From Leucothrix mucor DSM 2157 (GTDB taxonomy: Bacteria; Pseudomonadota; Gammaproteobacteria; Thiotrichales; Thiotrichaceae), in the NCBI RefSeq assembly GCF_000419525.1, contig NZ_ATTE01000001.1:2028655-2092654 (forward strand): a stretch of DNA of 64,000 nt. The letters run 5' to 3'. The notes beneath the pieces were generated by a model that saw only the letters and a list, made by a program, of their open reading frames with translations, was not told the origin of the DNA and made no database searches. Shown piece by piece: positions 17,678 through 51,640 of this stretch. Both the position numbers and the translations under genes were made by a program. Position 1 is the first letter of the stretch, and the number at the start of each line of letters is the position of its first letter.

Positions 17678-18556
17678 ATGCCCTTTCACGGAGTACGACC
17701 TGAGCGACGCTATTTATTCCATCCATCACCAGTGAGTGATGTCGGCGTGAATGATGCGAATGTCTGGCGTCTGAATCCAGCGCATCGACACGTTTATAAC
17801 AAGCTGCATGTTGCGCTATCGCAAGGCCTGATTGCTGCACCGAGTGGCGTTAGCCCGATTGCCATGGGACTTGAACCGGAGCACGCTTGCTTTGTAAAAC
17901 CCATCACCAATTTAGGCGGTATGTCGCTCAATAGCTTCGCAACCACCGCTCAGGCATTGACTGATGCCACTATCAATGGCACTGAAAACACAGCTAGCAA
18001 CTCAGCGGCTGGCAGCTTTTGGTGTGAGTTTTTATCCGGTACGCAAACCAGTACCGACGTTTTAGTGCTAAACGGCGAACCACAGTGGTATGGGCACACA
18101 AAAGCCGCTGATCAACGTGATAAAAACCGCCCTATTTACTGGCTGATTGGCGCAGATTGTCAGGACTCAGAAGCGCATATCGAAACCTTTATTCGTCGCG
18201 AATTAGCGGACTATACCGGCTTGTGTAATGTCGAGATGATTGGTAGCCACATCATCGAAGTCCACCTGCGCGGGTCAAATGCCTTTTTTGACTATTACCC
18301 CGATGCCTTTATGCAGGCGTGGGTGAATCTGGTCGATCATCAAACATGGCAAGGCTTGGAGCCCATTAACCAAGGTTGTTTGTACTCCCTATTTGGCGAT
18401 TGGACGCTCCCTGACAATGCCGAGCAACTGGTTGAAGCATCCGGTGCGCGCCTGTATCGCGATGGAATGATGGCTGATCGGGTAGGAATCATTTTTGCGG
18501 ATTGTCCTGAAACTGCGCAGTCTATTGAGGCACAGTTAAAACAATCAAGTTGTTAG
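17678..18556 (+). CDS. Hypothetical protein, possibly ATP-grasp-like
   Basis: 292 aa with no confident motif. There is weak resemblance to the ATP-grasp fold (NVEMIGSHIIEVHLRG). Confidence 0.3.
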   Translation: MPFHGVRPERRYLFHPSPVSDVGVNDANVWRLNPAHRHVYNKLHVALSQGLIAAPSGVSPIAMGLEPEHACFVKPITNLGGMSLNSFATTAQALTDATINGTENTASNSAAGSFWCEFLSGTQTSTDVLVLNGEPQWYGHTKAADQRDKNRPIYWLIGADCQDSEAHIETFIRRELADYTGLCNVEMIGSHIIEVHLRGSNAFFDYYPDAFMQAWVNLVDHQTWQGLEPINQGCLYSLFGDWTLPDNAEQLVEASGARLYRDGMMADRVGIIFADCPETAQSIEAQLKQSSC

Positions 18557-18705: not shown

Positions 18706-19137
18706 ATGTCCAGTCTAATCCATACCATATACGCTAGCCGAGCCGTTAACGACTTTTCACAAGATGACATTGTCGATTTACTATCGAAAGCGAGAACGAA
18801 AAATGCATCGCTGGGTATAACGGGCATGCTGCTCTATGACGATGGCTCTTTCTTTCAGGTTTTGGAAGGAGAGGAAGCGGCGCTTGATCAGCTATTCAGT
18901 GAGATCTCCGACGACAAACGTCACCAGCAGGTCGCCAAAATCATTTCAGAAGCCATTCCAAAGCGACAATTTAGCGACTGGAGCATGGGCTATGCGGCGA
19001 TTTCAAGTGATGAGTTAAAAACCATCGAAGGCATGAATGACTTTTTCACTGAGCAAAACTGCCTTGCAGAAATAGATGCCGGACGGGCTAAAAAATTACT
19101 GAAAGCTTTCGCTCAGGGTCGCTGGAGACTGGACTAG
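18706..19137 (+). CDS. BLUF domain blue-light sensor protein
   Basis: 143 aa. BLUF signature YASRA...GITGMLLYDDGSFFQVLEG, with a conserved Tyr/Gln/Trp/Met set apparent. Confidence 0.8.
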   Translation: MSSLIHTIYASRAVNDFSQDDIVDLLSKARTKNASLGITGMLLYDDGSFFQVLEGEEAALDQLFSEISDDKRHQQVAKIISEAIPKRQFSDWSMGYAAISSDELKTIEGMNDFFTEQNCLAEIDAGRAKKLLKAFAQGRWRLD

Positions 19138-19139
19138 CA

Positions 19140-19868
19140 ATGTCCACGCCTGCCAGCCTAAGCAATATCGACTTTTCCCATGCATTTCAACCTATTGTAG
19201 ATATCGATGAAGGCAAGATTATCTCGTATGAGGTACTGGTAAGAGGCCCTAACCAAGAGTCTCCGGCAACTGTATTTAGCCAAGTGACTAAGCAACAATT
19301 CATGGACTTTGATCAGCTGATCAGGGAAAGAGGCATCGCACAAGCTGCCTCACTTGGACTTAGCTGCTGCTTGAGTCTCAACTTTACACCCGGCGAAATC
19401 CTATTCGCGCATGGCGCTTATGTTGAGCGCACTATTAGCGTTGCAGAACAACACAATATCCATGCACATCAGCTCATTATCGAAATCACCGAAAGTGAGG
19501 CAATACTGGATTTGCCACTGTTAGCAGAAATCATCAACAAGCTACGCCGCAGTGGTATAGCCATCTCTATTGATGACTTTGGATCGGGTTATGCAGGCTT
19601 AAGCCTGCTTGCAGATATTCAACCTGACCAGGTAAAAATCGATATACACCTGATCAAAAACGTTAATAAAAACGGCCCTCGGCAAACCATTGTAAAAGCC
19701 ATTAATAATATTTGTCTGGATCTTGGCATTGACGTGCTGGCAGAAGGCGTCGAAAGCCACGAGGAGTTTTTATTTTTAGAACGTGCGGGAATATCGCTGT
19801 ATCAAGGTTGGTTTATCGCACGACCAGCATTTGAATCCCTGCCACTAACGTTTGACTTAAAGCCTTAA
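19140..19868 (+). CDS. EAL domain c-di-GMP phosphodiesterase (stand-alone)
   Basis: 242 aa. EAL catalytic motifs are present (EVLVR, EITE, DDFGSGYAG, KIDIHLI, EGVE, QG). Its start is 2 nt after the BLUF stop. Confidence 0.8.
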   Translation: MSTPASLSNIDFSHAFQPIVDIDEGKIISYEVLVRGPNQESPATVFSQVTKQQFMDFDQLIRERGIAQAASLGLSCCLSLNFTPGEILFAHGAYVERTISVAEQHNIHAHQLIIEITESEAILDLPLLAEIINKLRRSGIAISIDDFGSGYAGLSLLADIQPDQVKIDIHLIKNVNKNGPRQTIVKAINNICLDLGIDVLAEGVESHEEFLFLERAGISLYQGWFIARPAFESLPLTFDLKP

Positions 19869-21199: not shown

Positions 21200-21400
21200 T
21201 TAGGCCGCTTTTTTAGCTATCTTCTTAGCTACTGCGCGTGCTTTCTTGTTGTCGCCCTTCTTGATTTTCTTCAGCGCTTTCTTAGCCGCTGCTTTTACAA
21301 CTTTCTTGCTCTTAGAGACTTTTAAGCCTGCTTTTTTAACGGCTTTCTCTGCGAACTTTACTGCTTTTTTCTTGGCATCTTTCTTGTTTAACTTAGACAC
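21200..21400 (-). CDS. Histone H1-like Lys/Ala-rich nucleoid protein
   Basis: KKAVKFAEKAVKKAGLKVSKSKKVVKAAAKKALKKIKKGDNKKARAVAKKIAKKAA. A GTG start at 21398-21400 is preceded by AGGAGA with a 7-nt spacer. The ORF-track N-terminal extension to 21508 reads as non-coding. Confidence 0.6.
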   Translation of the reverse strand: MSKLNKKDAKKKAVKFAEKAVKKAGLKVSKSKKVVKAAAKKALKKIKKGDNKKARAVAKKIAKKAA

Positions 21401-21469
21401 GTATATGTCTCCTTTCGATAATTGAGACCAAACAATAATGTATATACATAGTATAGTCAAGTGAAGTAC

Positions 21470-21502
21470 AAAATTGTAGGGCCGCCGGTATGGCAGCCCT
21501 CT
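21470..21502 (-). terminator. Possible terminator downstream of the large helicase gene
   Basis: Minus-strand hairpin gggctgccataccggcggccc followed by a weak T-run (tacaatttt). Confidence 0.3.
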
Positions 21503-21549
21503 TTGCAATGACTACTACTTCATAGCCTGAGCAGGCTACAAGGAAAAGC

Positions 21550-24500
21550 CTAATTAACAACCGTCAGGTACGTTGGCCATTGACCACTGTTAACCATTAA
21601 AGCCGTATCAAATACTCTTTGCATCTTCTCTTCCTGAGCATCTGCAGTGGCCGAAAAGTTAAAAAGCTGCTGCTGTTTAGTCTGCACTTTAGGATTCCAG
21701 TACCCCATTCCTTGGTCAAATAACAATGTACTTTTTCTTCCAGATGCCCACTCAATTTCCATGCTCCTGCCATGTTGTAAGTCGTAAGTCTTATCGAACA
21801 ACTGAACAGTAGGAGTTATTCCGAAGGCACCGGAGAACAACATCTCTATGCAATTGGTCAGATCACTATCTCTTATCCAGTCGTGCTTTATTTCACGACT
21901 CGGATATGCCGCATTCACCTTAGGTCTTAAGGTTCTAATCTCGACACTCTCCAACTCATCACCACTTAGAAGCTCAATAAATCCACTCAATAAAACAGCT
22001 GACCACGGTGACTTAAGGTATCGATCAGAGTAAACAATTGAACGCACCTGATCAGTCTTCAATAAATCAGAAAACTCTTTTGCATAAGACTCAAATAGCT
22101 TGGAAATTCGATCACTTACGCTACTGACAGGGCCGTTTAGTTCCTCAGTAATCACCATGACCGATGTACCAGATGCAGGCTTAATCCATAGAGAAGTATC
22201 AACAGGGTTAACTGCGATAGGTTCTAACTCATTTGAAGTTGCCCAAGTATCTGTCTTAGAAGATTGGAGCCAAGTGTCACCGGGTATCAAAGGCTCAGGG
22301 TTGCTACAGAAAAGCGTATGACACCCCTCCTCAGAAAAGACCTGCAGAATCAAGTTGGCATCACTACTGTGTATTGCTTTATCAAGCTCTACTATACGCA
22401 CCCCAAGCTCAGAAATTCGAGACAGATCCCTTTGAATCTCAGCTTCGAAGGCACTTGCTGATTCGATACATAGCTCTACACTTACTTTATCAACCAACTG
22501 CCAACGTAATACCTGATCTCTAAACCCAGCAAAACCTAAGTCCCATTGACTAATGTCGTTACTGAGTAAAAGACGAATCGTGACTTCAGAAGATTTACTT
22601 TTTAACGTATTAATAGATCTTCTGATGTACTGGTTGGCACCTCTGGAGCAATATGTAGCACCGGGAATATCTTTAAGGGCGTCCGGTAAAGATAAGAATG
22701 ACAGATAATCACTTTCTTCTAGCCACTGCTTTGCAGCTTTTCTGTCTAACTCTTCTTGCTCAACTCTACTGTCTTGTGATGCTAAGCAGGCAGAACACAC
22801 ATTGTCACAATCAGCTATACAATTTAGCTTTTCCTTTACTGATCCGATGAGACCGACCAAATCATCAAGACCTGCTAATACAAAACCAGCTCCACCGCTA
22901 GCCTGATCGAACACCTGAATAACTGAGCGTTTAGAGCCCGTTTCAAGATCTCGATTTACTCTATAACTGAACCCCATTTCAGAACTAGAGATCCCCAAAC
23001 GATCGGCTAGTGCATCACGAAGTGCTACCGCTATAGTTGTAGCAACAACCTTATCTTCAGCAGAATCACTCAGCCACTGCCCAGTTTTTGGATTCTTTAA
23101 ATATAGCTCTAAAACATCTGTCGTGATTTGGTAGCCAAGGTATATATTTGGTTTGACTGCCTCACCGGAACAGCTTTGTTCCTTATCACTGCTAACGCTC
23201 CCTCCGCCTATGGGCTTATGCATTTCATCAGGTTGCAAGGCTTTAGGCACATTACCTTCATTCGTCATTGACTCTGCTCGTCCACAACTCATGCATACCG
23301 CATAGCCTTTTTCGTGCTCTCCAGATGAATTATAAAAAACGCGACCGTCATTCCCATATTGAACATGACCGCAGCGAGCATCAGGCAGCGAAATTGACTC
23401 ACCAATTAATTGAATAAGTGGCTTCTCTACGCGAATAAATTTTTGTGATGAAATGTCATTGCCCGGAGAGTCATAAAAATCAGTCTGGAAACCTGCTGGA
23501 CGTAAGACCTGCTTTTGGTTTTTCGAAGAAATTTCAGTATCACAACCATCGCAAGTCAGGTTTTCACTATTGCTGTAAGCATTTTCTTTTAAGCCACTAG
23601 CCCCACAATTAGTACAACGCCAAGCAATATCAAACTTCTGAGCTTCATTGATTGCGCCTCCTGCATGCCATTGTAAACTAACACCAACTGAGCGATACAC
23701 TTTCCCATCAATAACGACTTGCGCACCAGGGGCATACTCCCTAATTGCAACATCTAACCCCCGCGAAGGCAGCTCTTTCCACTTTCCAGTATTATCCTCC
23801 CGTCCTTCATTTTCTTTCTGTTTTTGTTTTTGAATAAAGTCATCCATATTATAGGTATTCAGCGTAACAACATCTGTTGGAAAACCATAAACTGGAAGGA
23901 ATGTACGAACAGAAAGGTCTCGTAAAAGGTATTCACCCCCGTGCCTCGTAAGCTCTAAGGATAATGCCCTTTTATAAGCATTCTCCTTAGCATTCCCAAT
24001 GAGGAGGTTTAACTTATCAAAATCAGTTTTCCATCTGGTTTGAATACCCCCAATCAGGTCAGATGCATCAACAAAAAGCTCCTCTAAAGAACGCCCTGAG
24101 ATACCGGTGCCTGCTGTTAACTTAGCGACTGCAGAAGCGACCTCTCCTGAGTGTGAGGCTGATTCCAGCCAGTCTCTAAACCTCTGACATGGAGAGTTTT
24201 CCCCGCTATAAAACCAGCTCACTGTAAGTTTTATATAATCATCACTAGGCTCAATAAAGGTTCGAAGAAAGTATGAGAGTAAATATGAATTCACATGTCT
24301 TAATACAATCTTATCCGAGCTTAACGTAATACTGGGTGCAGGAATTTTTGTGACAAATGGCCATACCGGGTCATTGAAAGCCCGTCTATTATGTGGGTCC
24401 GCTTTGCATAAAGTGTATGCAATAGCCCTAGACTCGCTTCTTCGCCCGGCACGACCCGCTCGCTGTAAATAGTTTGCCGGATGAGGTGGAACATTATTCA

Positions 24501-27500
24501 TTACAACAGCTGATATGCCGCCAATATCTACCCCCATCTCCATAGTCGTTGAGCAGTTCAGAACATTAATTTTTCCTCGCTTAAATAGCTCTTCATATTC
24601 CTCCAGACGCTCTGAGGTTTGCTGTGCGGAGTGTTCTGCTGTTCTATAGTAAAATCCCCCCTCAACTGTTCTATCGCTAAGATCTGTCCACAGACTCTCG
24701 CTCCTTAGCTCATCAACCTCCTGATCTTGACTAACAAGTTCTCGGATTTGAACTAACTTTGGTACAGCACTGCTATTAGGTCTAAATTTAGACAGGTCGG
24801 GCAACTTTACTTTCTTACATCGGTAGTCGACATCAGTAAGGATTTTTCGTGGTAGATAAGGTGTTAAACCTCTGAAAGTAGTATCAATCAGGCGATTTGT
24901 TTCACTACAGACCCAAGCTTCTCTAGGTAATGAAAAGGTAATTTTATCCAATAGCAGTTGATAACCCTTATCAGTTCTCACCAAAATATTTACATTATCG
25001 CTAGTCAGAGCCTCCCAAGCAGACTTTAACCATAAATTCAGCTTGTTTTGGTCTTCCCTATTTGTCATGTCAAGGTTGCAACCAGTAGCTAAGAGCTTGA
25101 TTAATCTAGATGCACTATTCCCCTTAGCCTGAGGCCACATCTTTATTGTATTGCTCTCATCTGTATTTGATTCTGGCGGAAACAAGGATTTTGGTGAAAA
25201 CTTTGAGCCCATCCAGAACCTGATGGTGTTCTCAAGTTTCAAATAAGTATTTTCACGAACAAAGAAGTCTAATGTCACTTTAAGAAAATCTTTCCAGTCA
25301 CTTAGGCTTAACCGTCCTTCTAAACTAACATCTCCTTGTATTGGAGATATCGCTCTCGTTTGCTCCCAGTACTGAGGAGCATGAGATACATTCGATAAAC
25401 CCTCATAATTAACCTTAATAATTCCCAATGTCTCGGTGCTGTTCTGGTTTTTAGGTCGTCGCGCATACTCTCTTGCCAATAAAAGGCGGGCAATGTATCG
25501 ACCAGTATTATCCTCTGACAGAATCTTCCGGTTAATTGATATATTGTAATCAAGAATATATTGACTAACATCGGTACAACCGGAAAGCTCGCTTACCATA
25601 TCTTGCCAGTTCATTTCTGCAGCTTCTGGTCGTGAATCACTATCAATTAGCGCCTCAGCCTGCTTTCTAAAAACTGCAGCACGATCAGACATTCCTTTTA
25701 ACTCAAAGGTTTCAGCAAATGTTATCAAATCATCATAAGAAAACTCCCCCATGGGGGAGTTTGTGATCTTTGAGTCAACATTTTTTTGATTCTCTGCCAA
25801 GATCTCAAATACCAATCCTCTTAACCTTGACCGCTCAGCTTCCTGCTGCATTCTTACCGCCATTCTTGCCGTGCCTTGGCGACTATCGGTAAAGGTAATA
25901 AGTTTGCGTCCACGCCCAGGAAGTTCTTCAGGTGACTTTCCAGCACAATCCTCTTTATCTGGATCTGGGCAATATTCTAAGACCGTAGGAACCGCATTCG
26001 CAGTGTAAAAAGGAGATCCTAAGTATAATTGACGATACCAAGAACCAAACTTGGAGGACTTTGCGTCACAGCGGCTACATATAGACTCTGAATGATTAAT
26101 ATGGGAAAAGCTGATTGAAGAGTTACTCTGATTAAGTACACCAAACTTAAGGCTCTCAGTATCCAATGAGCTTTTGCCATACGATTCATTTTTACAGTTA
26201 ATTCCCGCAATGACTTTTTTCGTATCATTTGGTTGAATATCTGGAGCTGAGTCTGAACTACCTTCAAAATCCTCACTATCTGATTCAGAATTTAGTGAAA
26301 ACTCATCCTCAACATAAGTGCTGATTTGCTGAAGCTCTCCTCCCTTATCTTCGGCAAGTAAATGAGGCTCCTTACATCCCTTACAAAACGTTAGTTCGTA
26401 AACAGGTGACCCACATGAACAACGTGACTTATGAGCAGTGTAAATATTTCCAAACGACCACTTTCCTAAACTCTCTGGTTTGGCTGTACATTTGGGGTCA
26501 ATGCAAGCCCACAGACCATGTAACATCTGCTGAAAAAGATGAATCCGAAGCTTAAGAAAAGGTGCTGACTCGATACTAGGCTTTGTGCCTGTCATTAAAT
26601 CTAACCACCCAAGAAGCTCCTGCTGCTTCTCTGTAAGAGATTGTCCCTCCAACCTATCACCGAACTCATTTACCAGTTCAGACAAATCAAGTGGACGATT
26701 TTGTTTCACAGCACCATTTAAACTACCCTTAAGAATGTATGTTCTCAGGTCGTGAGACAGCCTGTTATTAATTAAAGCCGTGAACCTACTTTCTGAAACT
26801 TCAGAGCCGAGCTCTATCTGTGATATTTCATCAAAGCTTAAGTTAGATAACTTTTCAGGAAGCGAGATTTCATCCCAAATTCTCCTTCCACCAATAACAA
26901 CAACTTGATTTGTAGAAACCCCTGCCAAGTCTGCTAAGTACTGTGTCAACTGTTCCTTAGCATCCTCACCTGCGATAGTTGCAGAAGTGGCGACAAAACG
27001 AATATCTTTCGCGTCTCTGCCAAATGCCTCAACAACCCTACGTAGCAGTAATGAGATCTCAGCAGCTTGGGACCCAACATAGGTATGTGCTTCATCCAGA
27101 ACAATCCAGCGCAGAGATTTGGCTTCTTTTGAAATACTAAGGATTGGGCTATCTACTTGCCTCACCAACATGTATTCCAGCATGGTAGCGTTTGTCATTA
27201 AAATGGGGGCTGGTTCTTTTCTTAATAGCTCGCGAGAAAGAATCTGATTAGGCTTTTTCTTTTGCTCTTTTCTAACACGGTCTGACCTCTCCTCTGTTTT
27301 ACCGTTGTATAAGCAAAAACGTAGGTCGCTACCATAGGATTTAGTCCAGGCATCGAGCCTTTCCTGCTGAGAATTGATCAGTGCATTCAAAGGATAAAGA
27401 AATAGTGCTCTCACTCCGACCAGAGCACCCTTTTGATTAGCTCTTTCCTGAATTAAATCCTCAAGTATGGGAATCATGAAACACTCGGTCTTACCTGACC

Positions 27501-27867
27501 CCGTTCCACTTGTAATGACTGCTGACTTAGGCTGCTTATCTAACAGTGTTTCCCAAGCCTGAATTTGATGCTTGTAAGGCTTTAGACTTCTTGGAAAATC
27601 ATAGGCATCAGCTTTCTCCAAATTATCAAGCAAGCTTCTTGATAAAAGCGTTCCTTCTAAACTTGCCAATGATATTGCTGACGGCTCCCAGCCAAAAGTG
27701 TGCTCAAAAACGGGGGCTGCCAGAAAGCACCCATCAGAACCCAGCTCATCATTCATCTGGCTTGCAAGGTGCTGCCTGAGCTCTGCATTATTGATACCTA
27801 AAATACTTAATGTAGCCTCTCTGGTGCGACTGAGGCTTTGGTTAATTAAGTCCTTGAAGAAGTACAT
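21550..27867 (-). CDS. Very large SF2 DEAD/DEAH helicase with DUF1998-like Cys4 zinc-ribbon domain and unknown C-terminal region. DruE-like; candidate Druantia type III helicase.
   Basis: 2105 aa. Q-motif PYKHQIQAW, Walker A TSGTGSGKTE, DEAH box VLDEAHTY, motif III TSAT, motif VI QRAGRAGRR. Cys clusters CTNCG...CDGC and CMSCG resemble DUF1998/MrfA-like. About 40% GC versus about 48% in the flanks. Confidence 0.65.
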   Translation of the reverse strand: MYFFKDLINQSLSRTREATLSILGINNAELRQHLASQMNDELGSDGCFLAAPVFEHTFGWEPSAISLASLEGTLLSRSLLDNLEKADAYDFPRSLKPYKHQIQAWETLLDKQPKSAVITSGTGSGKTECFMIPILEDLIQERANQKGALVGVRALFLYPLNALINSQQERLDAWTKSYGSDLRFCLYNGKTEERSDRVRKEQKKKPNQILSRELLRKEPAPILMTNATMLEYMLVRQVDSPILSISKEAKSLRWIVLDEAHTYVGSQAAEISLLLRRVVEAFGRDAKDIRFVATSATIAGEDAKEQLTQYLADLAGVSTNQVVVIGGRRIWDEISLPEKLSNLSFDEISQIELGSEVSESRFTALINNRLSHDLRTYILKGSLNGAVKQNRPLDLSELVNEFGDRLEGQSLTEKQQELLGWLDLMTGTKPSIESAPFLKLRIHLFQQMLHGLWACIDPKCTAKPESLGKWSFGNIYTAHKSRCSCGSPVYELTFCKGCKEPHLLAEDKGGELQQISTYVEDEFSLNSESDSEDFEGSSDSAPDIQPNDTKKVIAGINCKNESYGKSSLDTESLKFGVLNQSNSSISFSHINHSESICSRCDAKSSKFGSWYRQLYLGSPFYTANAVPTVLEYCPDPDKEDCAGKSPEELPGRGRKLITFTDSRQGTARMAVRMQQEAERSRLRGLVFEILAENQKNVDSKITNSPMGEFSYDDLITFAETFELKGMSDRAAVFRKQAEALIDSDSRPEAAEMNWQDMVSELSGCTDVSQYILDYNISINRKILSEDNTGRYIARLLLAREYARRPKNQNSTETLGIIKVNYEGLSNVSHAPQYWEQTRAISPIQGDVSLEGRLSLSDWKDFLKVTLDFFVRENTYLKLENTIRFWMGSKFSPKSLFPPESNTDESNTIKMWPQAKGNSASRLIKLLATGCNLDMTNREDQNKLNLWLKSAWEALTSDNVNILVRTDKGYQLLLDKITFSLPREAWVCSETNRLIDTTFRGLTPYLPRKILTDVDYRCKKVKLPDLSKFRPNSSAVPKLVQIRELVSQDQEVDELRSESLWTDLSDRTVEGGFYYRTAEHSAQQTSERLEEYEELFKRGKINVLNCSTTMEMGVDIGGISAVVMNNVPPHPANYLQRAGRAGRRSESRAIAYTLCKADPHNRRAFNDPVWPFVTKIPAPSITLSSDKIVLRHVNSYLLSYFLRTFIEPSDDYIKLTVSWFYSGENSPCQRFRDWLESASHSGEVASAVAKLTAGTGISGRSLEELFVDASDLIGGIQTRWKTDFDKLNLLIGNAKENAYKRALSLELTRHGGEYLLRDLSVRTFLPVYGFPTDVVTLNTYNMDDFIQKQKQKENEGREDNTGKWKELPSRGLDVAIREYAPGAQVVIDGKVYRSVGVSLQWHAGGAINEAQKFDIAWRCTNCGASGLKENAYSNSENLTCDGCDTEISSKNQKQVLRPAGFQTDFYDSPGNDISSQKFIRVEKPLIQLIGESISLPDARCGHVQYGNDGRVFYNSSGEHEKGYAVCMSCGRAESMTNEGNVPKALQPDEMHKPIGGGSVSSDKEQSCSGEAVKPNIYLGYQITTDVLELYLKNPKTGQWLSDSAEDKVVATTIAVALRDALADRLGISSSEMGFSYRVNRDLETGSKRSVIQVFDQASGGAGFVLAGLDDLVGLIGSVKEKLNCIADCDNVCSACLASQDSRVEQEELDRKAAKQWLEESDYLSFLSLPDALKDIPGATYCSRGANQYIRRSINTLKSKSSEVTIRLLLSNDISQWDLGFAGFRDQVLRWQLVDKVSVELCIESASAFEAEIQRDLSRISELGVRIVELDKAIHSSDANLILQVFSEEGCHTLFCSNPEPLIPGDTWLQSSKTDTWATSNELEPIAVNPVDTSLWIKPASGTSVMVITEELNGPVSSVSDRISKLFESYAKEFSDLLKTDQVRSIVYSDRYLKSPWSAVLLSGFIELLSGDELESVEIRTLRPKVNAAYPSREIKHDWIRDSDLTNCIEMLFSGAFGITPTVQLFDKTYDLQHGRSMEIEWASGRKSTLLFDQGMGYWNPKVQTKQQQLFNFSATADAQEEKMQRVFDTALMVNSGQWPTYLTVVN

Positions 27868-27873
27868 AAGCGA

Positions 27874-30800
27874 TTAATCCTTATCGTTTTTATTAAGTAA
27901 ATATGAGGTAACAAGTGCATGAGCTGGCCGATACCAAGAGGTCCTATCAAAGTCTGATATTTTTCTGACAAAGAACTTTAGCTCGGCCATCGTTGAGTTC
28001 ATTTTTAAGTCAGCAATACTAGATTTTCCTGAGGTTACATAAGCCATAAATATAGGCAGGTAAACCACTGAATCTTCATATTTTTCAAGAGGCAGTGCCT
28101 TAATTTTCTTTGAAAAATCTTGCTGTTCAACCCACGCTGAAAGTTCACCATTCAAATACTTTGGCCAAAGAGTGTTTTGATAGCTTTCATGAAGAGTGTC
28201 CCTCCACATAGGCAATATCAAGTCAGGTGGCAGACTTGTAAGCACCTCATTATTGCCACTGCTAAGGTAGTGTTCCACGCTCTCAAAGCCAGAAACGATG
28301 TTCGAAAGAACGGCTTTTCTGTTATCAACCATGTCATTAATAACAAATTCTGGAAGCCCCATTCCCCTCAGCCAACGATCATAATTTTTATAGGCTTGGC
28401 TCCAAATAGGTAAAGAAATACTTTCCCAGATTATCGACAACTCATCACGCATCCGGTCACTAAATAACTCATCAACCTCAAGGCGTAAAATCGATACTGC
28501 TAAGGTTAGTGGATTGCGTGAAAGTGAAAGCCAACTCTCAAAGGTAGACAGTGGTAGGTGATCAAATTTTCTTTTAATATCATCTAAATATTGCCACCCA
28601 CTGTGATCAAGATCACTTCCCATTTCGGCAATTTGGTCATCTATTACATGTGGATTATTCTGAGGGTGATAAAGCCGCGCAGCCTCATGTAAGGAGTGAA
28701 TTTTAGATCCGGAAGAATAGGTATTCGAAGCCGGTTGGCCGACTAGCAGATATGGCCTGAACTTGACTCTAGACTCTGCTTCTGGATAGAGCAACCAAGG
28801 CCCATCTCTATACATGGAGTCATCTGTGACAAATCGGCCAGTACCCACTCCCTGACTTGTTAGTTCACGCAATTCAATGGGGGTTTGCTTGGGATCAGAA
28901 AGGAGCATTGCGGAGACATTTACTCCACTAGCCACTCTACCAGTCGTGAAGTCAGATGCAGTGAAAACCTCTGTGCTATCTTTTGCGATAGACCCGTTAT
29001 ATCTTTTAATATTGACTGTCATTAAGCGACGCTGAGGGCTTTCAACCGTTAGCTTGACATAGGCATCCTGACTTTCCATCGCAGCCAATATCTGTCGTAA
29101 ATCATTTTGATACGCAAACAAATTAACAGAAAGCGGAACATCACCCGATTTGAACAACCGGTAATCAAGATAAACGTTAGTGCTGAAGTTCTTATCCTGC
29201 AACTCCATTCTCAGATGAAAGGACTGTGTTTCACCTACAGAAAATAGCAATATACTCAAGCCAATCAGATCTTCTGGGATCAAACTTTCGGACGTCAATA
29301 TATTGTTACTGGAGTCCAATAATCGCGCTCCCTCATAAGGAAAAGGTAAGCGTAGTATTACTGGCTCAAGAAATTCACCACCTTTAACACTTAATTGAAG
29401 ATTAGAGGGTGGTACTGCGTCTCGATAAGAAAGTGAAATAACCGATCGCCCCTCAATAATCTCTAAGCGGGAGCTGATATTTTCACCCATGACGCCAAAC
29501 TTACACTCACCTCCCCCCATAATTTCAAGGCGAGCTGGGCGAGTAGCATCACCGGCAAACAAACGGACTTTAAAGCTTTCAGGTAGTACACCGAATTTTC
29601 TCCTGAATAGAATTTCACCAGAGCTATTTTTAAGCGTGTAATTAAAGACCCCACCTATCTCACGCCGGCTTTTAGCAACTAACTCTCCATTAATATACTC
29701 ATAAACAGAACCTTCATTGCTCTTTTGGCACAGCTTTGGCCATCCCAGATAGACAGCGTTAGGGAGGGAATCAAAATCAAGCAGCTTTCCATCCAATGCA
29801 AACGTTTGAGTTACAGAAGGATGATTCAAACGAACTCTAAACTTATCACTTCCCAGAAAGATTGATGTCTCCTGGCTAAGCAAAACCCAGCGAACACCAT
29901 CAGTTTGTATATGCTTTATTTCTACACTTTCCGCTGGAGTAAAGTCAGCATTAGGTGGAAGCCGCACTAAAACTGCTGGTTGCCTCAAGGAACAACTCGC
30001 ATTTGCAAGCAGTTCCTGATCACCACTTACCTCAAAAATGACCGGTGCAGTTTCAAAGTCAATAGAGCTGGCATCAAACTGAGTTTGATAAATGGCAACA
30101 CCGTTATCCATCAAAGCCAAAGAAAGTGACTCACTACAGTCTCTTCTTTTTAACACTACTGGTGCTCTCGGTAGCCGTACTTTCAGCTCAGTACCATTTT
30201 GTACTTCACCATAGACAATGCTACCCCGAGCAATAAGCACACTGCCCTCATAGAATGCCATTTCAAGACGAGTACTGCTTAGAGCCGAAATATCAACCGG
30301 AAAGGTTACCGCAATAGGCGTAATGAGTTGTGCCTGTAAATCCCAGTGACCTTCAACTTGTCCAGCAATACTGTGCGTACACCTGAAATCATTCGGTGTC
30401 TTTTTAATGATTTCATTTTCTGCCTGACGCTTACTTGCATCACGCAACCAGTCCGTAATCAGGTTTTTAGCATTAGCTTCATTAAGTGGTAGAGGAAAAT
30501 CTTTTTTCCAGCGGGGCTCAGCTTTATCTAAAAATTCAACCGGATCTATTTCTTGCTTCAAGCTGGGATACTTTCCTGCGAGATGCATCAGCTGTTCAAT
30601 CACACCTGCAAGCAATTGTCGGGTTTCAAGGTTGTGAAAGGTATAAGGCAAGTCTTGCTCATAACTGGCAATCATGTCACTCGTCGTGCCTAAACTGGCT
30701 TTATTGCTATGGTAATTCTTCAAACCCTTTCTGATTACACGCCCAAAGCCGTGTGTTTCGCTTTTTATCAGCGGCCAAGGCAGCCCGCCCTCCAGAAATA

Positions 30801-31176
30801 ATGAGCCAATAAAATTCCGACCTTTTTCTGTACGACGTATTGGCCTTTTCCAAAAGCTTTCTAAGCCATAACTTATGAGTTCACTTCTTAGACCTTGCTT
30901 AAAATCACAACCTAATGACTTATCTGCCCACTCCCACGACCAGCTACCCTCTTCTGCTCCGTAGTCGCGCCGAAACCTTTCTGCTACAAATAAACAATAG
31001 AGCTCAGCCCAATGCTTACCTTTGATCGGGTCTGTAGCGAATCTAATATTGGCGATTAACTTATTTTTCAGGCTTTGAAATTCCTCAAATGTTACGTGAT
31101 AACTATACAAAGGCTTACCAGTTGGCCCAGCAAAACATTCACGAATAAAGAGAAACTCACTCAACCAAGCCTTCAT
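27874..31176 (-). CDS. Large protein of unknown function upstream of the helicase. DruH-like; candidate Druantia type III partner.
   Basis: 1100 aa with no recognisable motif. Its stop is 6 nt before the helicase start. Size and order (unknown ~1000-aa protein then DUF1998 helicase) match the type III Druantia architecture. Low GC. Confidence 0.45.
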   Translation of the reverse strand: MKAWLSEFLFIRECFAGPTGKPLYSYHVTFEEFQSLKNKLIANIRFATDPIKGKHWAELYCLFVAERFRRDYGAEEGSWSWEWADKSLGCDFKQGLRSELISYGLESFWKRPIRRTEKGRNFIGSLFLEGGLPWPLIKSETHGFGRVIRKGLKNYHSNKASLGTTSDMIASYEQDLPYTFHNLETRQLLAGVIEQLMHLAGKYPSLKQEIDPVEFLDKAEPRWKKDFPLPLNEANAKNLITDWLRDASKRQAENEIIKKTPNDFRCTHSIAGQVEGHWDLQAQLITPIAVTFPVDISALSSTRLEMAFYEGSVLIARGSIVYGEVQNGTELKVRLPRAPVVLKRRDCSESLSLALMDNGVAIYQTQFDASSIDFETAPVIFEVSGDQELLANASCSLRQPAVLVRLPPNADFTPAESVEIKHIQTDGVRWVLLSQETSIFLGSDKFRVRLNHPSVTQTFALDGKLLDFDSLPNAVYLGWPKLCQKSNEGSVYEYINGELVAKSRREIGGVFNYTLKNSSGEILFRRKFGVLPESFKVRLFAGDATRPARLEIMGGGECKFGVMGENISSRLEIIEGRSVISLSYRDAVPPSNLQLSVKGGEFLEPVILRLPFPYEGARLLDSSNNILTSESLIPEDLIGLSILLFSVGETQSFHLRMELQDKNFSTNVYLDYRLFKSGDVPLSVNLFAYQNDLRQILAAMESQDAYVKLTVESPQRRLMTVNIKRYNGSIAKDSTEVFTASDFTTGRVASGVNVSAMLLSDPKQTPIELRELTSQGVGTGRFVTDDSMYRDGPWLLYPEAESRVKFRPYLLVGQPASNTYSSGSKIHSLHEAARLYHPQNNPHVIDDQIAEMGSDLDHSGWQYLDDIKRKFDHLPLSTFESWLSLSRNPLTLAVSILRLEVDELFSDRMRDELSIIWESISLPIWSQAYKNYDRWLRGMGLPEFVINDMVDNRKAVLSNIVSGFESVEHYLSSGNNEVLTSLPPDLILPMWRDTLHESYQNTLWPKYLNGELSAWVEQQDFSKKIKALPLEKYEDSVVYLPIFMAYVTSGKSSIADLKMNSTMAELKFFVRKISDFDRTSWYRPAHALVTSYLLNKNDKD

Positions 31177-31427
31177 AAACTAGATCCTCGGCTTATTTTC
31201 AAGCCAACTGTTTTCATATAACAGCAACAATAAGACGCCAAAAACTACTAATATTTGCCGCTTCTAATAAATTATCAACAATAGAACATACCCCTTTCAA
31301 AAAAAATAATAAACAATGAGTTAAGGACATAAAATTTAATATGTAATCAAACAAATAAGTGGTACCTCTTATGAGCTCTAAGATTTGATCTCTTAAAGAG
31401 TAAGAAATACCACCTATAATGGCTCTA

Positions 31428-32573
31428 TCATTCCAAGCGCACCGTGCTATTCATCAGTCCTTCCAAGCCGCCATACACCTTCAGCTCACAAATATTGCTG
31501 GTAATACTTTCCAGTACTTCCAGCTCTTTCAAGCGCAATAGCACAGGATTACCTTCCATCAATTTGGCCGTATTATGCAGCGAACGCGTGGCCTGAGTTT
31601 CTTCACGACGACGAATCAAATTCGCTTCAGCCTGCTTTTCAGCCGCTACTACTTCAATCAGGATTTCCTTCATATCACCTGGTAACACGATATCTCGCAC
31701 GCCGACCTTTTTCAGGTCAAGGCCATAGGCTGACACACTCTCCAGCACTAGCTCATGCACTTGCTGGTTTAGCAGGTTTTTATCCGCCAACAATTGGTCC
31801 AGCGTTTGAGTCGAGACCACGCTGCGCAATGCCAGCTGCAGTTCACGATACAAAAACGCCTCATGATCTTTAATCGCATCACGGACTTTAATGGCATCCA
31901 ATACCTGCCACGTCGCTGAGACATTAATCCGCAGGCTCACCTTGTCCTTGGTTAAAATCTCCTGACCATTCACCTCCATGGTCTGCAAGCGCATATCCAT
32001 CATCTGCAAACTCACATACGGATTAACCAACCACCAGCCATGCTGGCCTTCTTGCAAAACGGCATGACGCACACCGCTCACCAATAAGAAACCGATATGT
32101 CCTTCCGGCACATAGCCCAGCGTGTACAAGCAAGTCACCAGGTGGCTTTTTAGCAATGGCTCACGGGTTTTCGCCAACTCATCCGCCAAGCTAGCGCTCA
32201 ACAGATAGCTATTGCTGATATCCAACGTGCGAAACTCCAACTCGCGCTTACCTTTCCAATACGCGCCACTACGACCTGGTGCGGCGATGTCTTTAAGCAC
32301 GCCGGCTTCGTAAAACATTCCAATAGCTTGCGGGCCAGTTTCCCAGCTCATCACATGCTCTGTGAATGCCTCCGGGTGCAACTCGACCAAGTGCAATAAA
32401 TCCTGATCGACGCGTCGAAACTCATTACTCACCGCATACTGCTGAATACTGATCTCACCGCGTAAATTCCAATGTTCATAACAGCCCGGCGTTAAAATCG
32501 CCTGAAACTGCTGATTTTTAAACAGCAATCCGCGGTGTGATTCCGGAATAATTGTTTTCATTTTGAATAACAT
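31428..32573 (-). CDS. SPFH/band 7 (stomatin/prohibitin/flotillin-like) domain protein
   Basis: 381 aa. Band-7 core (VSLRINVSATWQV...KKVGVRDIVLPGDMKEI) followed by a coiled-coil region EVVAAEKQAEANLIRRREETQA. Confidence 0.75.
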   Translation of the reverse strand: MLFKMKTIIPESHRGLLFKNQQFQAILTPGCYEHWNLRGEISIQQYAVSNEFRRVDQDLLHLVELHPEAFTEHVMSWETGPQAIGMFYEAGVLKDIAAPGRSGAYWKGKRELEFRTLDISNSYLLSASLADELAKTREPLLKSHLVTCLYTLGYVPEGHIGFLLVSGVRHAVLQEGQHGWWLVNPYVSLQMMDMRLQTMEVNGQEILTKDKVSLRINVSATWQVLDAIKVRDAIKDHEAFLYRELQLALRSVVSTQTLDQLLADKNLLNQQVHELVLESVSAYGLDLKKVGVRDIVLPGDMKEILIEVVAAEKQAEANLIRRREETQATRSLHNTAKLMEGNPVLLRLKELEVLESITSNICELKVYGGLEGLMNSTVRLE

Positions 32574-32860
32574 GCTGCTTCTCCTGCAAAATTCATAAAT
32601 AAAGTCGGCATAGCCTTCACACCTGAACGAGCGTCGATATTTACACTAAACGGGGCTAAGCGCCGGATGCCTCATAACAAGGTATTGACGGTCACTTGCC
32701 GCACTTAATGGACCCATACCAAAGGTCATTCAATGTGCTGGATGCCTGCTCAGTGCCGCCGACTCAGTGTGTTGCCACGCTGCGCCCGCTTTACCTAACA
32801 AACATCCCGAAGGCTATTGCCTAGTGGCCCTTTCGGGCAGTTAAGACAACTGGGAGAGTT

Positions 32861-32935
32861 GTTTTGCTAGTTGGAATCGAACCAACAACCGATTGATGAT
32901 GAGTCAATTGCTCTACCGCTTGAGCTATAACAAAT
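32861..32935 (-). ncRNA. tRNA-like element with CAT anticodon-like loop. It could be a degenerate tRNA-Met/Ile2 or a YrlA-type Y-RNA tRNA-mimic module.
   Basis: The minus strand folds as a cloverleaf: acceptor TTTGTTA/TAGCAAA (one G-U pair), D-stem GCTC/GAGC, anticodon stem ATTGA/TCAAT with loop CTCATCA, T-arm GTTGG-TTCGATT-CCAAC. It is non-canonical: U at position 1, C at position 37 and no encoded CCA. It sits between a sigma-54 promoter and the SPFH gene. Confidence 0.5.
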
Positions 32936-33067
32936 TGCCGTGCTTTTCGCACAGCGTGCTATGACCCTACACAGCCGATACACAGCCACTTTCAGAGAAA
33001 GCCTGTGTCAGGCAGGTATACAGAACCTGCTCCGCTGGCCAATGCAGTTAACAGTCATAAATAATCT

Positions 33068-33086
33068 ATTGCACGGCACGTGCCAA
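33068..33086 (-). promoter_or_regulatory. Sigma-54 (-24/-12) promoter divergent from rtcR, embedded in the palindrome GGCACGTGCC
   Basis: Minus strand reads TTGGCACG-TGCC-GTGCAAT. GG and GC elements have the correct spacing (TGGCACG-N4-TTGCA consensus) with one mismatch. It lies about 150 nt upstream of the rtcR start, on the opposite strand. Confidence 0.55.
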
Positions 33087-33238
33087 CTTTAGAATTAAAA
33101 TCATAAATAACTGAAAATTAAGGATTATTTATTTTTCATCCTCGAAAGGCCAAAACACCAAAATTGAACTAATTATTTTTTCAGATAAATTTATACGGTT
33201 TTAGATATACTGAATTAAATCGAACTTAGGGTTACATT

Positions 33239-34843
33239 ATGACCAGTAACGTCATCATCAGTATTTTGGGTAGTAAGCTTGATCATCGTGGCTTTGGTCA
33301 GAAGCGATTTGAACGCTGGCGACCCAATGTTGCACTAGCTCAGCACCCTGAGTTACCCATTGATGAGTTTATTCTGCTGTATCACCCCGACCATGAAGCG
33401 CTGGCTAAATTAACGCTGGGAGATATCAAAGAGGTGTCGCCTAGCACCAAGCTCACCGGTATTACGCTTAATATCGACGACCCTTGGAATTTTGAGCAGG
33501 TGTATGGCGAGCTGCACGATGTGATGAAGCGCATCTCTTTCGACCCTGAAAATCACAATTACTACACGCACATCACTACCGGTACGCATGTCGCGCAGAT
33601 CTGTTTGTACCTGTTAACCGAGGCGCGCTTTATTCCCGGTAAGTTACTGCAATCCTCACCACTCAAAGAAGGCAATGGCGGCTCTTATCAAATTATTGAT
33701 TTGGATTTATCCTGCTATGATCAAATTGCGTCACGCTTTGCGGCCGAGGCGCGCCAAGGGGTTGACCATTTAAAAGGCGGCATCCAAACCCGCAATGCCG
33801 CTTTTAATAAAATGATGGCGCAGCTGGAGCAGGTATCGATTCGCTCGACCGCACCGATTTTACTCACTGGCCCGACCGGTGCCGGTAAATCGCAATTGGC
33901 GCGTCGTATTTATGCACTGAAGCAGAAGCGCGGTTTGGTCAGCGCTGATCTGGTGGAAGTTAACTGCGCGACCTTACGCGGCGACAATGCTATGTCCGCG
34001 CTATTTGGCCATGTAAAAGGGGCCTTTACCGGTGCCTTAAATGCGCGTACCGGCCTGCTGCGTGAAGCCAATAAAGGTCTGTTATTTCTCGATGAAATTG
34101 GCGAGCTGGGGCTGGATGAGCAGGCCATGTTACTACGGGCGATTGAGGATAAGGTCTTTATGCCGCTGGGCTCCGATCGCAATATCAGTAGCGATTTTCA
34201 ACTGATTGCCGGCACCAATCGCAACCTATTCCAACGCGTTAGCGAAGGCTTGTTCCGCGAAGATTTACTGGCGCGTATCAATCTTTGGACCTATGAAATC
34301 CCCTCGCTAAAAGCGCGGCAGGAAGATTTAGACCCCAATATCGACTATGAACTGCAGCAGTTCACCCATAAAGCGGGCCACAATGTGCGCTTCAATAAAA
34401 CTGCGCGCAAGCAATACCTTGATTTTGCCCACTCCGGCGAAGCCAGCTGGCGCGCCAATTTCCGCGATTTAAACTCCAGCATGACGCGCATGGCGACACT
34501 GGCCAGCGGTGGGCGCATTACCGAAGCAATCATTGCCGATGAAATCGTACGCTTGCAATCAGACTGGGCAAACCATGAAACAAAAGCTTCAGGCAGCACC
34601 TCGGTAGCTGACACTCTGCAAAGCATTTTATCCGATGCGGCAATTGCCGAAATCGACCTGTTTGATCACGCACAACTGGCCCATGTCATCGAAATTTGTC
34701 GCGGTAGTAAAAGCATGGCCGAGGCCGGTCGTAAACTGTTTAATGTGAGCCGAGAGCGCCGTAGCAGCAGCAATGACAGCAACCGGCTCAAAGTCTATCT
34801 CAACAAATTTGACTTAGAGTTTAAGCAGCTCACGGCCAACTGA
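33239..34843 (+). CDS. rtcR: Sigma-54-dependent transcriptional activator RtcR (N-terminal CARF-like domain + AAA+ + HTH)
   Basis: 534 aa. It is near-collinear with E. coli RtcR across all domains (WRPNV, HITTGTHVAQIC, LLTGPTGAGKSQLARRI, VEVNCATLRGDNAMSALFGHVKGAFTGA, GNFRDL). Confidence 0.9.
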   Translation: MTSNVIISILGSKLDHRGFGQKRFERWRPNVALAQHPELPIDEFILLYHPDHEALAKLTLGDIKEVSPSTKLTGITLNIDDPWNFEQVYGELHDVMKRISFDPENHNYYTHITTGTHVAQICLYLLTEARFIPGKLLQSSPLKEGNGGSYQIIDLDLSCYDQIASRFAAEARQGVDHLKGGIQTRNAAFNKMMAQLEQVSIRSTAPILLTGPTGAGKSQLARRIYALKQKRGLVSADLVEVNCATLRGDNAMSALFGHVKGAFTGALNARTGLLREANKGLLFLDEIGELGLDEQAMLLRAIEDKVFMPLGSDRNISSDFQLIAGTNRNLFQRVSEGLFREDLLARINLWTYEIPSLKARQEDLDPNIDYELQQFTHKAGHNVRFNKTARKQYLDFAHSGEASWRANFRDLNSSMTRMATLASGGRITEAIIADEIVRLQSDWANHETKASGSTSVADTLQSILSDAAIAEIDLFDHAQLAHVIEICRGSKSMAEAGRKLFNVSRERRSSSNDSNRLKVYLNKFDLEFKQLTAN

Positions 34844-49887: not shown

Positions 49888-50718
49888 TTAGGATGATTCA
49901 ACAGCGGCTTTGAGTTGTAGCAGCTGTGCATTGAGCAAGTCGGCAAACAGGCTGGATAAATCAAAACTTTCATCGACCTCGTTAGCGGCAGCCGCGGCCT
50001 GATCGAAATTTGTGTGTTGCAGCATTTGCATAAAGACTGCTTCTGCGGCGTTTAACGGTCGGGCTTGTACCCTGCCATCTAGCTGCCAGAATAAAATGGT
50101 GGTGGTGTTTAACTTTAGCTCTATGGCAGAGTCCGGAGTTTGCTCGCCAAAGCGCAAGGTGCTCCAGAGCTCCATTAAGTCATACTGCAAGCTCACTAAG
50201 CGGCTGGAGTCGACTAAGGCTAATGGCAATGCGCCAAGGTCTTCGCCTTGCGCAATCAATGCCTGAACCTGCTCCAAGCTTAAAAAGTCTTCGCCATTGG
50301 CATTCAACGCTTGCAACCAAGCCTGATCCAATGCGCAGATATCAGTTAAATACGGGTACTGTTTAACGATCGCGCCATGACGCTGATTTAGGTATTCAAT
50401 AAAGCTGAGCGTGGCATATTCATCGCTATCCACCCCAAAACCATAGCCAACTAAAGTCGCAGTGGCGGGAGGATTTTCTTGCACATAAGCAGCAGCCAGT
50501 TGCCCAAAAAACTCCTCACCCAGTAGCACCGGCAAGCAGGGTAAATTACTCTGTAACGCGCCAATGCTGGCTTTAATATAGCCATTGCGATAAACACTGA
50601 GAAACGCAGCCGGTCGACTACCGTCTAAAAACGGCAATACATCATTCTGGTTACCAGAGTGCATAAACTGCGTAAAGGCATTAATATAATCAGCATGTGT
50701 GTTTTCTGAATTAGCCAT
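49888..50718 (-). CDS. DUF2063 protein (MbnC/BufC-like RiPP recognition partner)
   Basis: 276 aa. It overlaps the upstream DUF692 gene by 8 nt, with typical DUF692-DUF2063 pairing. Confidence 0.65.
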   Translation of the reverse strand: MANSENTHADYINAFTQFMHSGNQNDVLPFLDGSRPAAFLSVYRNGYIKASIGALQSNLPCLPVLLGEEFFGQLAAAYVQENPPATATLVGYGFGVDSDEYATLSFIEYLNQRHGAIVKQYPYLTDICALDQAWLQALNANGEDFLSLEQVQALIAQGEDLGALPLALVDSSRLVSLQYDLMELWSTLRFGEQTPDSAIELKLNTTTILFWQLDGRVQARPLNAAEAVFMQMLQHTNFDQAAAAANEVDESFDLSSLFADLLNAQLLQLKAAVESS

Positions 50719-51637: not shown

Positions 51638-51640
51638 GGC

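Follow-up and report, generated by a model that had tools for sequence, protein, structure and literature searches.

The window analysed here is a 64-kb stretch of the genome of Leucothrix mucor DSM 2157, and all coordinates given below are positions within it. The locus of interest, i.e., the regulatory gene rtcR, a divergent sigma-54 promoter, a structured RNA with a tRNA-like domain and a gene for an SPFH/Band-7 protein, is a ligase-less variant of a known, so far predicted RtcR/Band-7/tRNA-like RNA system. As judged from sequence comparison, this layout is confined to the L. mucor lineage, where it is old and under purifying selection. The reading considered as probable is that the RtcR-controlled unit is an accessory part of an Rtc-type RNA-damage response, that the ligase is not encoded at the locus and that the Druantia genes found further downstream are a separate insertion.

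Starting from rtcR, the order on the minus strand is: TATCT repeats, sigma-54 promoter, leader with a cloverleaf, Band-7 gene, spacer, druH and druE. A previous sequence-only reading of this DNA had proposed an RtcR orthologue, a sigma-54 promoter divergent from its gene, a downstream order of tRNA-like RNA, SPFH/Band-7 gene and helicase gene pair, and the absence of rtcB, rtcA and rsr from the window; these four points are borne out by the present analysis. The regulator (WP_022951996) matches the NCBIfam RtcR equivalog model NF038308 with 765 bits (cutoff 650), residues 2-532 being aligned. Its N-terminal CARF domain corresponds to Pfam RtcR (PF06956, 6.8e-70, residues 4-181) and its AAA+ domain to Pfam Sigma54_activat (PF00158, 1.2e-46). 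The catalytic motifs are intact, i.e., Walker A (GPTGAGKS at residue 211), GAFTGA (at 261) and Walker B.

The ligase is absent from the whole window: tblastn with an RtcB query gave no match in the 64 kb. The open reading frames (ORFs) of at least 280 aa were also checked, either directly against Pfam or through the Pfam-annotated syntenic genes of L001 and L090 (L-numbers designate the compared loci), and none of them matches RtcB, RtcA or TROVE. All these ORFs but one were assigned to an unrelated family, the last one (292 aa, 17678-18556) having no Pfam match. Neither the RTC domain of the RtcA cyclase nor a Ro60/TROVE domain was thus found among the window ORFs of at least 280 aa, and no Y RNA was found with Rfam in the window even at E up to 10. 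There is no rtcB between promoter and RNA either, the predicted start of transcription being only ~125 nt away from the tRNA-like RNA. With megablast, no E. coli genome matched the locus.

For comparison, 80 further Band-7 loci were collected from contigs encoding homologues and from a scan of one genome per species. Layouts were counted on the 58 species-level loci having at least 6 kb of upstream sequence, «nearby» meaning within 10 kb. RtcR and RtcB are both near Band-7 in 44 loci, typically in the order rtcR, divergent sigma-54 promoter, rtcB, RNA, Band-7, and with one or two tRNA-like units (e.g., L004, L006 and L008). RtcB only is found near Band-7 in four loci and neither protein in ten, while RtcR without RtcB near Band-7 is found in none of the 58. 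An RtcR near Band-7 and without RtcB is therefore unusual, but the usual layout includes the same RNA and Band-7 gene. Throughout more than 80 loci, the tRNA-like RNA is always upstream of the gene of the Band-7 family. Moreover, the Band-7 protein of the window is 51-62% identical to the Band-7 proteins which adjoin RtcB in 48 of the 58 species-level loci. According to a citing preprint (bioRxiv 10.1101/312249), Burroughs and Aravind (NAR 2016) predicted such a tRNA, named b7a-tRNA, and a Band-7 scaffold for RtcB. The proposal that RtcR had been rewired to a different output does not hold for these two elements, which form an accessory module already predicted for RtcB systems.

The same rtcB-less layout (rtcR, promoter, RNA, Band-7) is present in the window, in L001 (Band-7 DNA 80% identical) and in L090 (94%). 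On the contig of L002 (86%) only the start of rtcR is present, and RtcB is not adjacent. Between the window and L001 synonymous sites are saturated (dS, the synonymous divergence, is 1.06) and the ratio of nonsynonymous to synonymous divergence (dN/dS) is 0.09 for Band-7 and 0.07 for RtcR; the values for Band-7 range from 0.02 to 0.09 among the L. mucor relatives. Since dN/dS is low and the leader is still 75% identical at a dS of about 1, the rtcB-less layout does not result from a recent decay. Split arrangements, with RtcB away from the RNA/Band-7 unit, exist elsewhere: Thiothrix lacustris encodes RtcB at another place of its genome, and its Band-7 locus (L023) has none within 10 kb.

The sigma-54 promoter, TGGCACgtgccGTGCA, is located at 33085-33070(-) and transcription is predicted to start near 33060. 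It must be noticed that one-mismatch matches to the sigma-54 consensus are not significant in the window (3 found vs. 4.0 expected), so that the call is supported by conservation in relatives and not by the consensus match. The site is invariant in L001, L002 and L090, the Band-7 genes of which are 80-94% identical to that of the window. It is also positionally homologous to the promoters of the Thiothrix and Thiolinea RNA/Band-7 units. These units have their own TGGCAC-N5-TTGCA promoter, which is followed after 20-30 nt by the 5' domain described below and after ~115-125 nt by the first tRNA-like unit, and the window is alike. In several of these units neither rtcR nor rtcB occurs within 10 kb. 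RNA and Band-7 probably form a self-contained and RtcR-dependent transcription unit, as far as can be deduced from these sequences.

There are two TATCT half-sites, at 33207-33203 and 33187-33183(-), i.e., at -122 and -102 from the sigma-54 promoter; L002 and L090 have retained them, and L001 has done so in part. TATCT/AGATA repeats are also found in other taxa, at two constant distances upstream of sigma-54 promoters (-101 to -104 and -122 to -124), and they precede both the rtcB promoters and those of the stand-alone RNA/Band-7 units. A strict TATCT palindrome is present in 16 of 51 upstream regions, vs. 0.4% of random 175-nt windows. The agreement in position between the TATCT repeats of the window and those of rtcB promoters from other taxa suggests a control by RtcR, and the repeats are a candidate RtcR operator. 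Their presence before stand-alone units suggests that RtcR may also act in trans. TATCT-N3-6-AGATA palindromes or half-sites were observed in Thiotrichales, Cellvibrio, methanotrophs and Betaproteobacteria (loci L004-L088).

The leader has stop codons in all three frames, and a coding small ORF was rejected for that reason. Its homology with the Thiothrix and Thiolinea leaders extends over its whole length; with Rfam, only tRNA and chance matches were obtained (E up to 10). A search with nhmmer detected the conserved 5' domain in 68 of 90 sequences (the window and 89 loci), and in each of them it immediately precedes the first tRNA-like unit. The three helices of this domain are paired in 95.4% of the cells, vs. 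28-35% when the partners are slid; the covariation score is 0.406 vs. at most 0.074, and none of 500 shuffles attained the observed score. The first tRNA-like unit of the Thiothrix and Thiolinea loci has been lost in the L. mucor group. Downstream of the cloverleaf, the hairpin with a GNRA loop is 94% paired, with compensatory changes, and the helices found by RNAalifold in the 3' domain are 77-88% paired, with double changes in 11 of the 12 pairs of the main helix. The leader structure as a whole is 83.6% paired vs. 31-40% with slid partners. A Shine-Dalgarno sequence and the ATG of Band-7 come at the 3' end. Taken as predicted from these alignments, the leader RNA is a multi-domain structure of ~490 nt, i.e., larger than a bare tRNA mimic.

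The cloverleaf is recognized by ARAGORN as Met/CAT and by the Rfam tRNA model with 62.5 bits. Conservation extends to all four arms, with covariation in the acceptor, anticodon and T stems and hardly any variation in the D stem. Close relatives have CAT, CTT or TTT as anticodon and more distant ones nearly any triplet, and some homologues have 5-nt loops. CCA is encoded by the genuine tRNA-Thr gene of the same window and not by the cloverleaf. A genuine tRNA-Met, elongator or initiator, was rejected because the anticodon varies, CCA is not encoded and the element is embedded in a conserved leader. As a separate observation, Methylophilaceae and Methylotenera loci have an extra tRNA-Pro(tgg)-like element (ARAGORN) between the sigma-54 promoter and rtcB (L074:8054-8131, L078:161-237, L081:7831-7908 and L085:2980-3057), thus the ligase gene has a tRNA-like leader in these loci.

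The Band-7 protein (WP_022951995; Pfam Band_7, 1.1e-26) has 7342 homologues annotated «slipin family protein», and no transmembrane segment was found in it. In the AlphaFold 2 (AF2) model, with a confidence (pLDDT) of 81, a beta-rich N-terminal domain is combined with an SPFH domain and a long C-terminal helix of 60 residues. Foldseek matches this model to stomatin, HflK/C, prohibitin, erlin and flotillin, which all form cages or rings. The major vault protein (MVP) is also matched (E about 1e-10 over 450-464 columns), with a TMq of only 0.35-0.39, and stomatin and HflK/C score better. On the basis of the model, the protein probably fits a soluble, vault-like scaffold forming cages or rings, the TM-scores being modest. 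Some Band-7 homologues have an N-terminal extension of ~150 aa: L008/L009:8001-9665 (P0041, 554 aa) and L094:5500-7092 (P0003, 530 aa), the latter being a stand-alone copy which adjoins murJ, with a gap of ~1 kb upstream.

Features of the L. mucor DSM 2157 locus (window positions).
Feature	Position	Strand	Basis
rtcR: CARF-like sensor, sigma-54 AAA+ activator, helix-turn-helix; 534 aa, intact	33239-34843	+	NCBIfam NF038308, Pfam
Candidate RtcR upstream activating sequence, two TATCT half-sites	33183-33207	-	Motif common to other taxa
Sigma-54 promoter, TGGCAC-N5-GTGCA	33070-33085	-	Consensus match, conservation in relatives
Non-coding structured leader RNA, ~487 nt, containing the tRNA-like domain	32574-33060	-	Alignment, stops in all frames
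Conserved 5' domain, ~80 nt: T-arm-like hairpin GCAGG...CCTGC, second hairpin, closing helix	32967-33047	-	nhmmer, covariation
Short hairpin in place of the lost tRNA-like unit 1	32938-32958	-	Gap in leader alignment
tRNA-like domain (b7a-tRNA unit 2): cloverleaf, CAT at the anticodon position, no encoded CCA	32861-32934	-	ARAGORN, Rfam
Two hairpins after the cloverleaf: CAACT...AGTTG; GCCC-GAAA-GGGC with GNRA loop	32827-32861	-	Alignments
3' domain: long-range helix with variable insert, upstream of the Shine-Dalgarno sequence	32633-32723	-	RNAalifold
SPFH/Band-7 protein (slipin family), 381 aa, soluble	31428-32573	-	Pfam Band_7, AF2 model
17-bp hairpin and U-rich tract, possible terminator or attenuator	31355-31417	-	RNA fold of 31430-31177
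Strain-variable insertion, 9.9 kb, Druantia type III	21514-31405	-	Empty sites in relatives, GC content
druH (STY4851/YjiT family), 1100 aa	27874-31176	-	PADLOC DruH3, NCBIfam YjiT_fam
druE, helicase with MZB/DUF1998 domain, 2105 aa	21550-27867	-	PADLOC DruE3, Pfam
Ancestral hairpin with T-run, displaced to downstream of druE	21469-21502	-	Aligns with the post-Band-7 hairpin of L002

The helicase gene pair had been read as defence-related, and this part of the reading stands: both genes belong to Druantia type III. DruH (WP_022951994) matches PADLOC DruH3 with 1208 bits over residues 1-1098 and NCBIfam YjiT_fam with 810 bits. DruE matches PADLOC DruE3 over its full length with 2412 bits and contains the Pfam domains DEAD, Helicase_C and MZB. 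For this helicase, DISARM and Dpd identities were rejected, the DruE3 model scoring far higher. The two genes are co-oriented and 6 nt apart. Full-length matches and adjacent co-oriented genes are those of a usual Druantia type III; only the position, after an RtcR-controlled gene, is unusual.

The part of the claim which is not retained is an evolved coupling to RtcR, the cassette being an insertion without counterpart in L002 and L090. In these two loci Band-7 is followed within ~50 nt by a hairpin, a 66-aa ORF and an aldo-keto reductase gene, and Druantia is not at the site; different genes follow Band-7 in L001. The GC content of the insertion is 42.3% vs. 48% for its flanks. L091 shares this insertion, but its identity of 97.7% to the window places it in the same strain cluster. 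Outside this cluster, the nearest DruH relatives with enough flanking sequence are 51% and 43% identical, and neither is near RtcR or Band-7. The 51%-identical DruH/DruE pair (L095:154-16970) lies between an integrase/HipBA pair and genes for a zeta-toxin and a type IV secretion system (T4SS) coupling protein; the integrase, HipBA and T4SS neighbours point to a mobile element resembling an integrative and conjugative element (ICE). The 43%-identical relative is in an unrelated chromosomal region.

The 17-bp hairpin after the Band-7 stop codon is identical in L091 and was not flagged by a simple terminator scan. It combines a 5' arm (GGTGGTATT...) that derives in part from the ancestral flank with a 3' arm that belongs to the insert; a target-site duplication was not observed at the insertion. 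From its sequence, this hairpin may be a terminator or the trace of an integration mechanism. An AT-rich spacer of 250 nt separates Band-7 from druH and contains a sigma-70-like promoter at 31300-31271(-), with 10 of 12 matches. At the other end, the displaced hairpin located beyond druE is likely the original Band-7 terminator. After druE come a small ORF and the aldo-keto reductase gene on the opposite strand. This small ORF, conserved between the insertion site and the aldo-keto reductase gene, is present in filled and empty sites (window 21200-21508(-), L002:2415-2615, L090:11268-11468, L091:10144-10344); it has 66 aa in relatives and 102 aa as listed for the window, and has no Pfam, PADLOC or NCBIfam match. 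As indicated by sequence, DruH/DruE is a separate Druantia type III anti-phage cassette, which probably has its own promoter and receives at most some read-through. Such read-through from the sigma-54 promoter is possible but would be obstructed, and is not needed for expression.

Other genes are inserted in the family between rtcB and the RNA/Band-7 unit, and they vary: DUF4145 plus Fic, a HEPN protein, DUF5677, HATPase plus a STAS-like DUF4325, a 7TMR-DISM hybrid histidine kinase and an EEP nuclease/phosphatase (L004:5058-6937, L060:8445-9347, L050:7967-9445, L075:2779-3858, L022:6874-9384 and L017:6849-7580). A second sigma-54 promoter precedes the RNA in L017, L022 and L026-L028. The region between rtcB and RNA/Band-7 behaves as a cargo hotspot.

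Other explanations of the locus must be weighed. That an ordinary tRNA-Met gene and a membrane-scaffold SPFH gene are by chance neighbours of rtcR has an almost negligible probability: ARAGORN and Rfam do score the RNA as a tRNA, but the anticodon differs (CAT, CTT, TTT) among near-identical relatives, CCA is not encoded, unlike that of the tRNA-Thr of the window, the RNA with its conserved flanking domains keeps its place upstream of Band-7 in more than 80 loci, and the Band-7 protein has no transmembrane helix. It is very improbable that rtcB was recently deleted, leaving rtcR, RNA and Band-7 as functionless remnants. Such a decay would fit the lack in the window of RtcB, the catalytic core of all characterised Rtc systems, and the loss of one of the two tRNA-like units; it does not fit the occurrence of the same layout in relatives diverged to a dS of about 1, the dN/dS values of 0.02-0.09 for Band-7 and 0.07 for RtcR, the conservation of promoter, TATCT sites and RNA helices, or the intact catalytic motifs of RtcR. 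A rewiring of RtcR, in which the sigma-54 transcript would read through RNA and Band-7 into druH and druE and make Druantia type III inducible by damage or infection, is judged unlikely. The cassette has the same orientation as Band-7 and is inserted exactly between its stop codon and the old terminator hairpin, a pattern scan gave no classic GC-rich terminator between Band-7 and druH, and other loci of the family carry conflict-type cargo (HEPN, Fic/DUF4145, DUF5677) between rtcB and the RNA. Moreover, there is a precedent in the defence superoperons of Bell et al. (eLife 2024, PMC11090510), which have an RtcR homologue at their head and, among the co-directional genes, sometimes Druantia type III. 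The RtcR-CoCoNuT superoperons described there share with the present locus an RtcR-type regulator upstream of co-directional defence genes. On the contrary, rtcR of L. mucor is divergent and not the head of an operon, and no CoCoNuT gene (McrB/McrC-like CnuBC, CnuH) and no McrBC-like domain was found in the window. To this must be added that the cassette is strain-variable (L002 and L090 do not have it at this site, and L001 has different genes there), that its GC content is 42% vs. 48%, that its nearest DruH relatives are on an ICE-like element and at unrelated sites without RtcR or Band-7 nearby, and that a 17-bp hairpin with a U-rich tail, an AT-rich spacer and a sigma-70-like promoter precede druH.

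A tentative alternative, to which a low probability is given, is that the tRNA-like RNA within a Band-7 cage is itself the effector and does not need the ligase. The RNA would either soak up or inhibit anticodon nucleases as a decoy or, as a sentinel, deliver to the CARF domain of RtcR the 2',3'-cyclic-phosphate fragments produced by its own cleavage. The stand-alone sigma-54/RNA/Band-7 units without nearby rtcB (10 of 58 loci, and the L. mucor lineage) are in line with this view, and the highly variable anticodon loops are expected for a bait. However, T. lacustris, which has a stand-alone unit, encodes RtcB elsewhere, and the presence of rtcB within 10 kb of the RNA in 48 of 58 loci points to a role as ligase cofactor. 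A more extended version is quite improbable, i.e., a self-sufficient and ligase-free RNA-damage effector, with a vault-like ribonucleoprotein in which the tRNA mimic would bait or block anticodon nucleases or amplify the RtcR signal, in addition to read-through into Druantia type III in the L. mucor strains having the insertion. If it were true, tRNA damage during infection would induce a DNA-targeting defence, and the locus would be a minimal natural analogue of the RtcR-headed superoperons.

The comparison with known systems leads to the following likenesses and differences: (i) with the Band-7/b7a-tRNA/RtcB system, the locus has in common the Band-7 family, the RNA directly upstream of Band-7, and RtcR with a sigma-54 promoter, but it lacks rtcB between promoter and RNA and has one tRNA-like unit of the usual two; with regard to the b7a-tRNA prediction, the RNA is here placed in a structured leader of ~490 nt with extra conserved domains; (ii) with rtcR/rtcBA of E. 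coli, it shares RtcR at the level of the NCBIfam equivalog and the divergent sigma-54 promoter, and differs by an RNA and an SPFH protein instead of rtcB/rtcA in the window; (iii) rsr-yrlBA-rtcBA of Salmonella (a Ro60 orthologue and Y RNAs) is likewise driven by RtcR and sigma-54 and combines a ring- or cage-like RNA-binding scaffold with a tRNA-mimicking non-coding RNA, both being predicted on the L. mucor side, whereas the L. mucor scaffold is SPFH/Band-7 and not TROVE/Ro60, there is no Rfam match to Y RNA, and ligase and cyclase are not in the locus; (iv) the eukaryotic vault (MVP and vault RNA) resembles it by a predicted beta-rich N-terminus, an SPFH shoulder, a cap-like helix and a presumed small structured RNA partner, but Band-7 has 381 aa vs. 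~800-900 aa for MVP, and the TM-scores are low.

The preferred reading, i.e., an accessory unit of an Rtc-type response, can be described as follows. Damaged RNA would be sensed by the CARF-like domain of RtcR, by analogy with Salmonella, where the signal consists of tRNA halves (PMC7790460), and with E. coli. It is only for these two bacteria that RtcR activation by tRNA fragments ending in a 2',3'-cyclic phosphate and/or by bound RtcA/RtcB is known. RtcR, presumably bound to the TATCT repeats ~100-120 bp upstream, would then activate the sigma-54 promoter, and the transcript would carry the structured RNA and the Band-7 ORF. The RNA, probably released or bound in cis, would assemble with Band-7 oligomers into a vault-like ribonucleoprotein, which may act as a repair scaffold or cofactor, or as a tRNA decoy against anticodon nucleases. 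The ligase, if needed, would come from another place of the genome and be controlled in trans, an arrangement that Thiothrix species seem to have. In some strains the Druantia cassette was inserted directly after the Band-7 stop codon, ahead of the old terminator.

Several points weigh against this reading. The preprint bioRxiv 10.1101/312249 describes b7a-tRNA as being without experimental validation. PaFlo8, which lies within the rtc locus of P. aeruginosa (PMC13086221), gave no phenotype on deletion in the assays tried. In E. coli, RtcA and RtcB bind the CARF domain of RtcR and are required for its activation (PMC9650030); a genome without both would thus need another trigger of RtcR. An RtcB of L. 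mucor is not among the 120 best matches to that of L. arctica, all at least 73% identical, which is only suggestive; these matches include L. sargassi, Leucothrix metagenome-assembled genomes and Thiothrix species. The operator is deduced from a motif common to several taxa. Finally, with the result of the terminator pattern scan, some co-transcription of Band-7 and druH is possible.

Two further gene groups of the window were noticed. At 49888-52012(-), three ORFs have the same direction and overlap or adjoin each other, i.e., those of a DUF2063 protein (49888-50718), of an MbnB/TglH/ChrH DUF692 enzyme (50711-51637, E 1e-82) and one of 123 aa (51641-52012), which is the layout of a precursor-modification cluster of the type of ribosomally synthesized and post-translationally modified peptides (RiPPs). 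At 18706-19868(+), an ORF for a BLUF blue-light sensor (143 aa) is directly followed by an EAL phosphodiesterase ORF (242 aa), both annotated by synteny with L002 and L090; their sequences suggest a two-gene light-regulated module of cyclic di-GMP.

The Band-7/tRNA-like RNA module occurs widely among Gammaproteobacteria and Betaproteobacteria, and in the L. mucor lineage it exists naturally in a minimal form, with a regulator, a promoter, one tRNA-like unit and one protein. Purifying selection on the ligase-less layout indicates that this layout is functional, so that the role of the module is separable from ligation, at least in genome organisation. The common TATCT motif, as a candidate RtcR operator, could serve to delimit RtcR regulons with dispersed members, among them the stand-alone Thiothrix units, and the multi-domain RNA of ~490 nt has no Rfam family. 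Moreover, the Druantia insertion gives matched strains with and without a defence cassette after an RtcR-controlled gene, which could show whether read-through couples the sensing of RNA damage to DNA defence.

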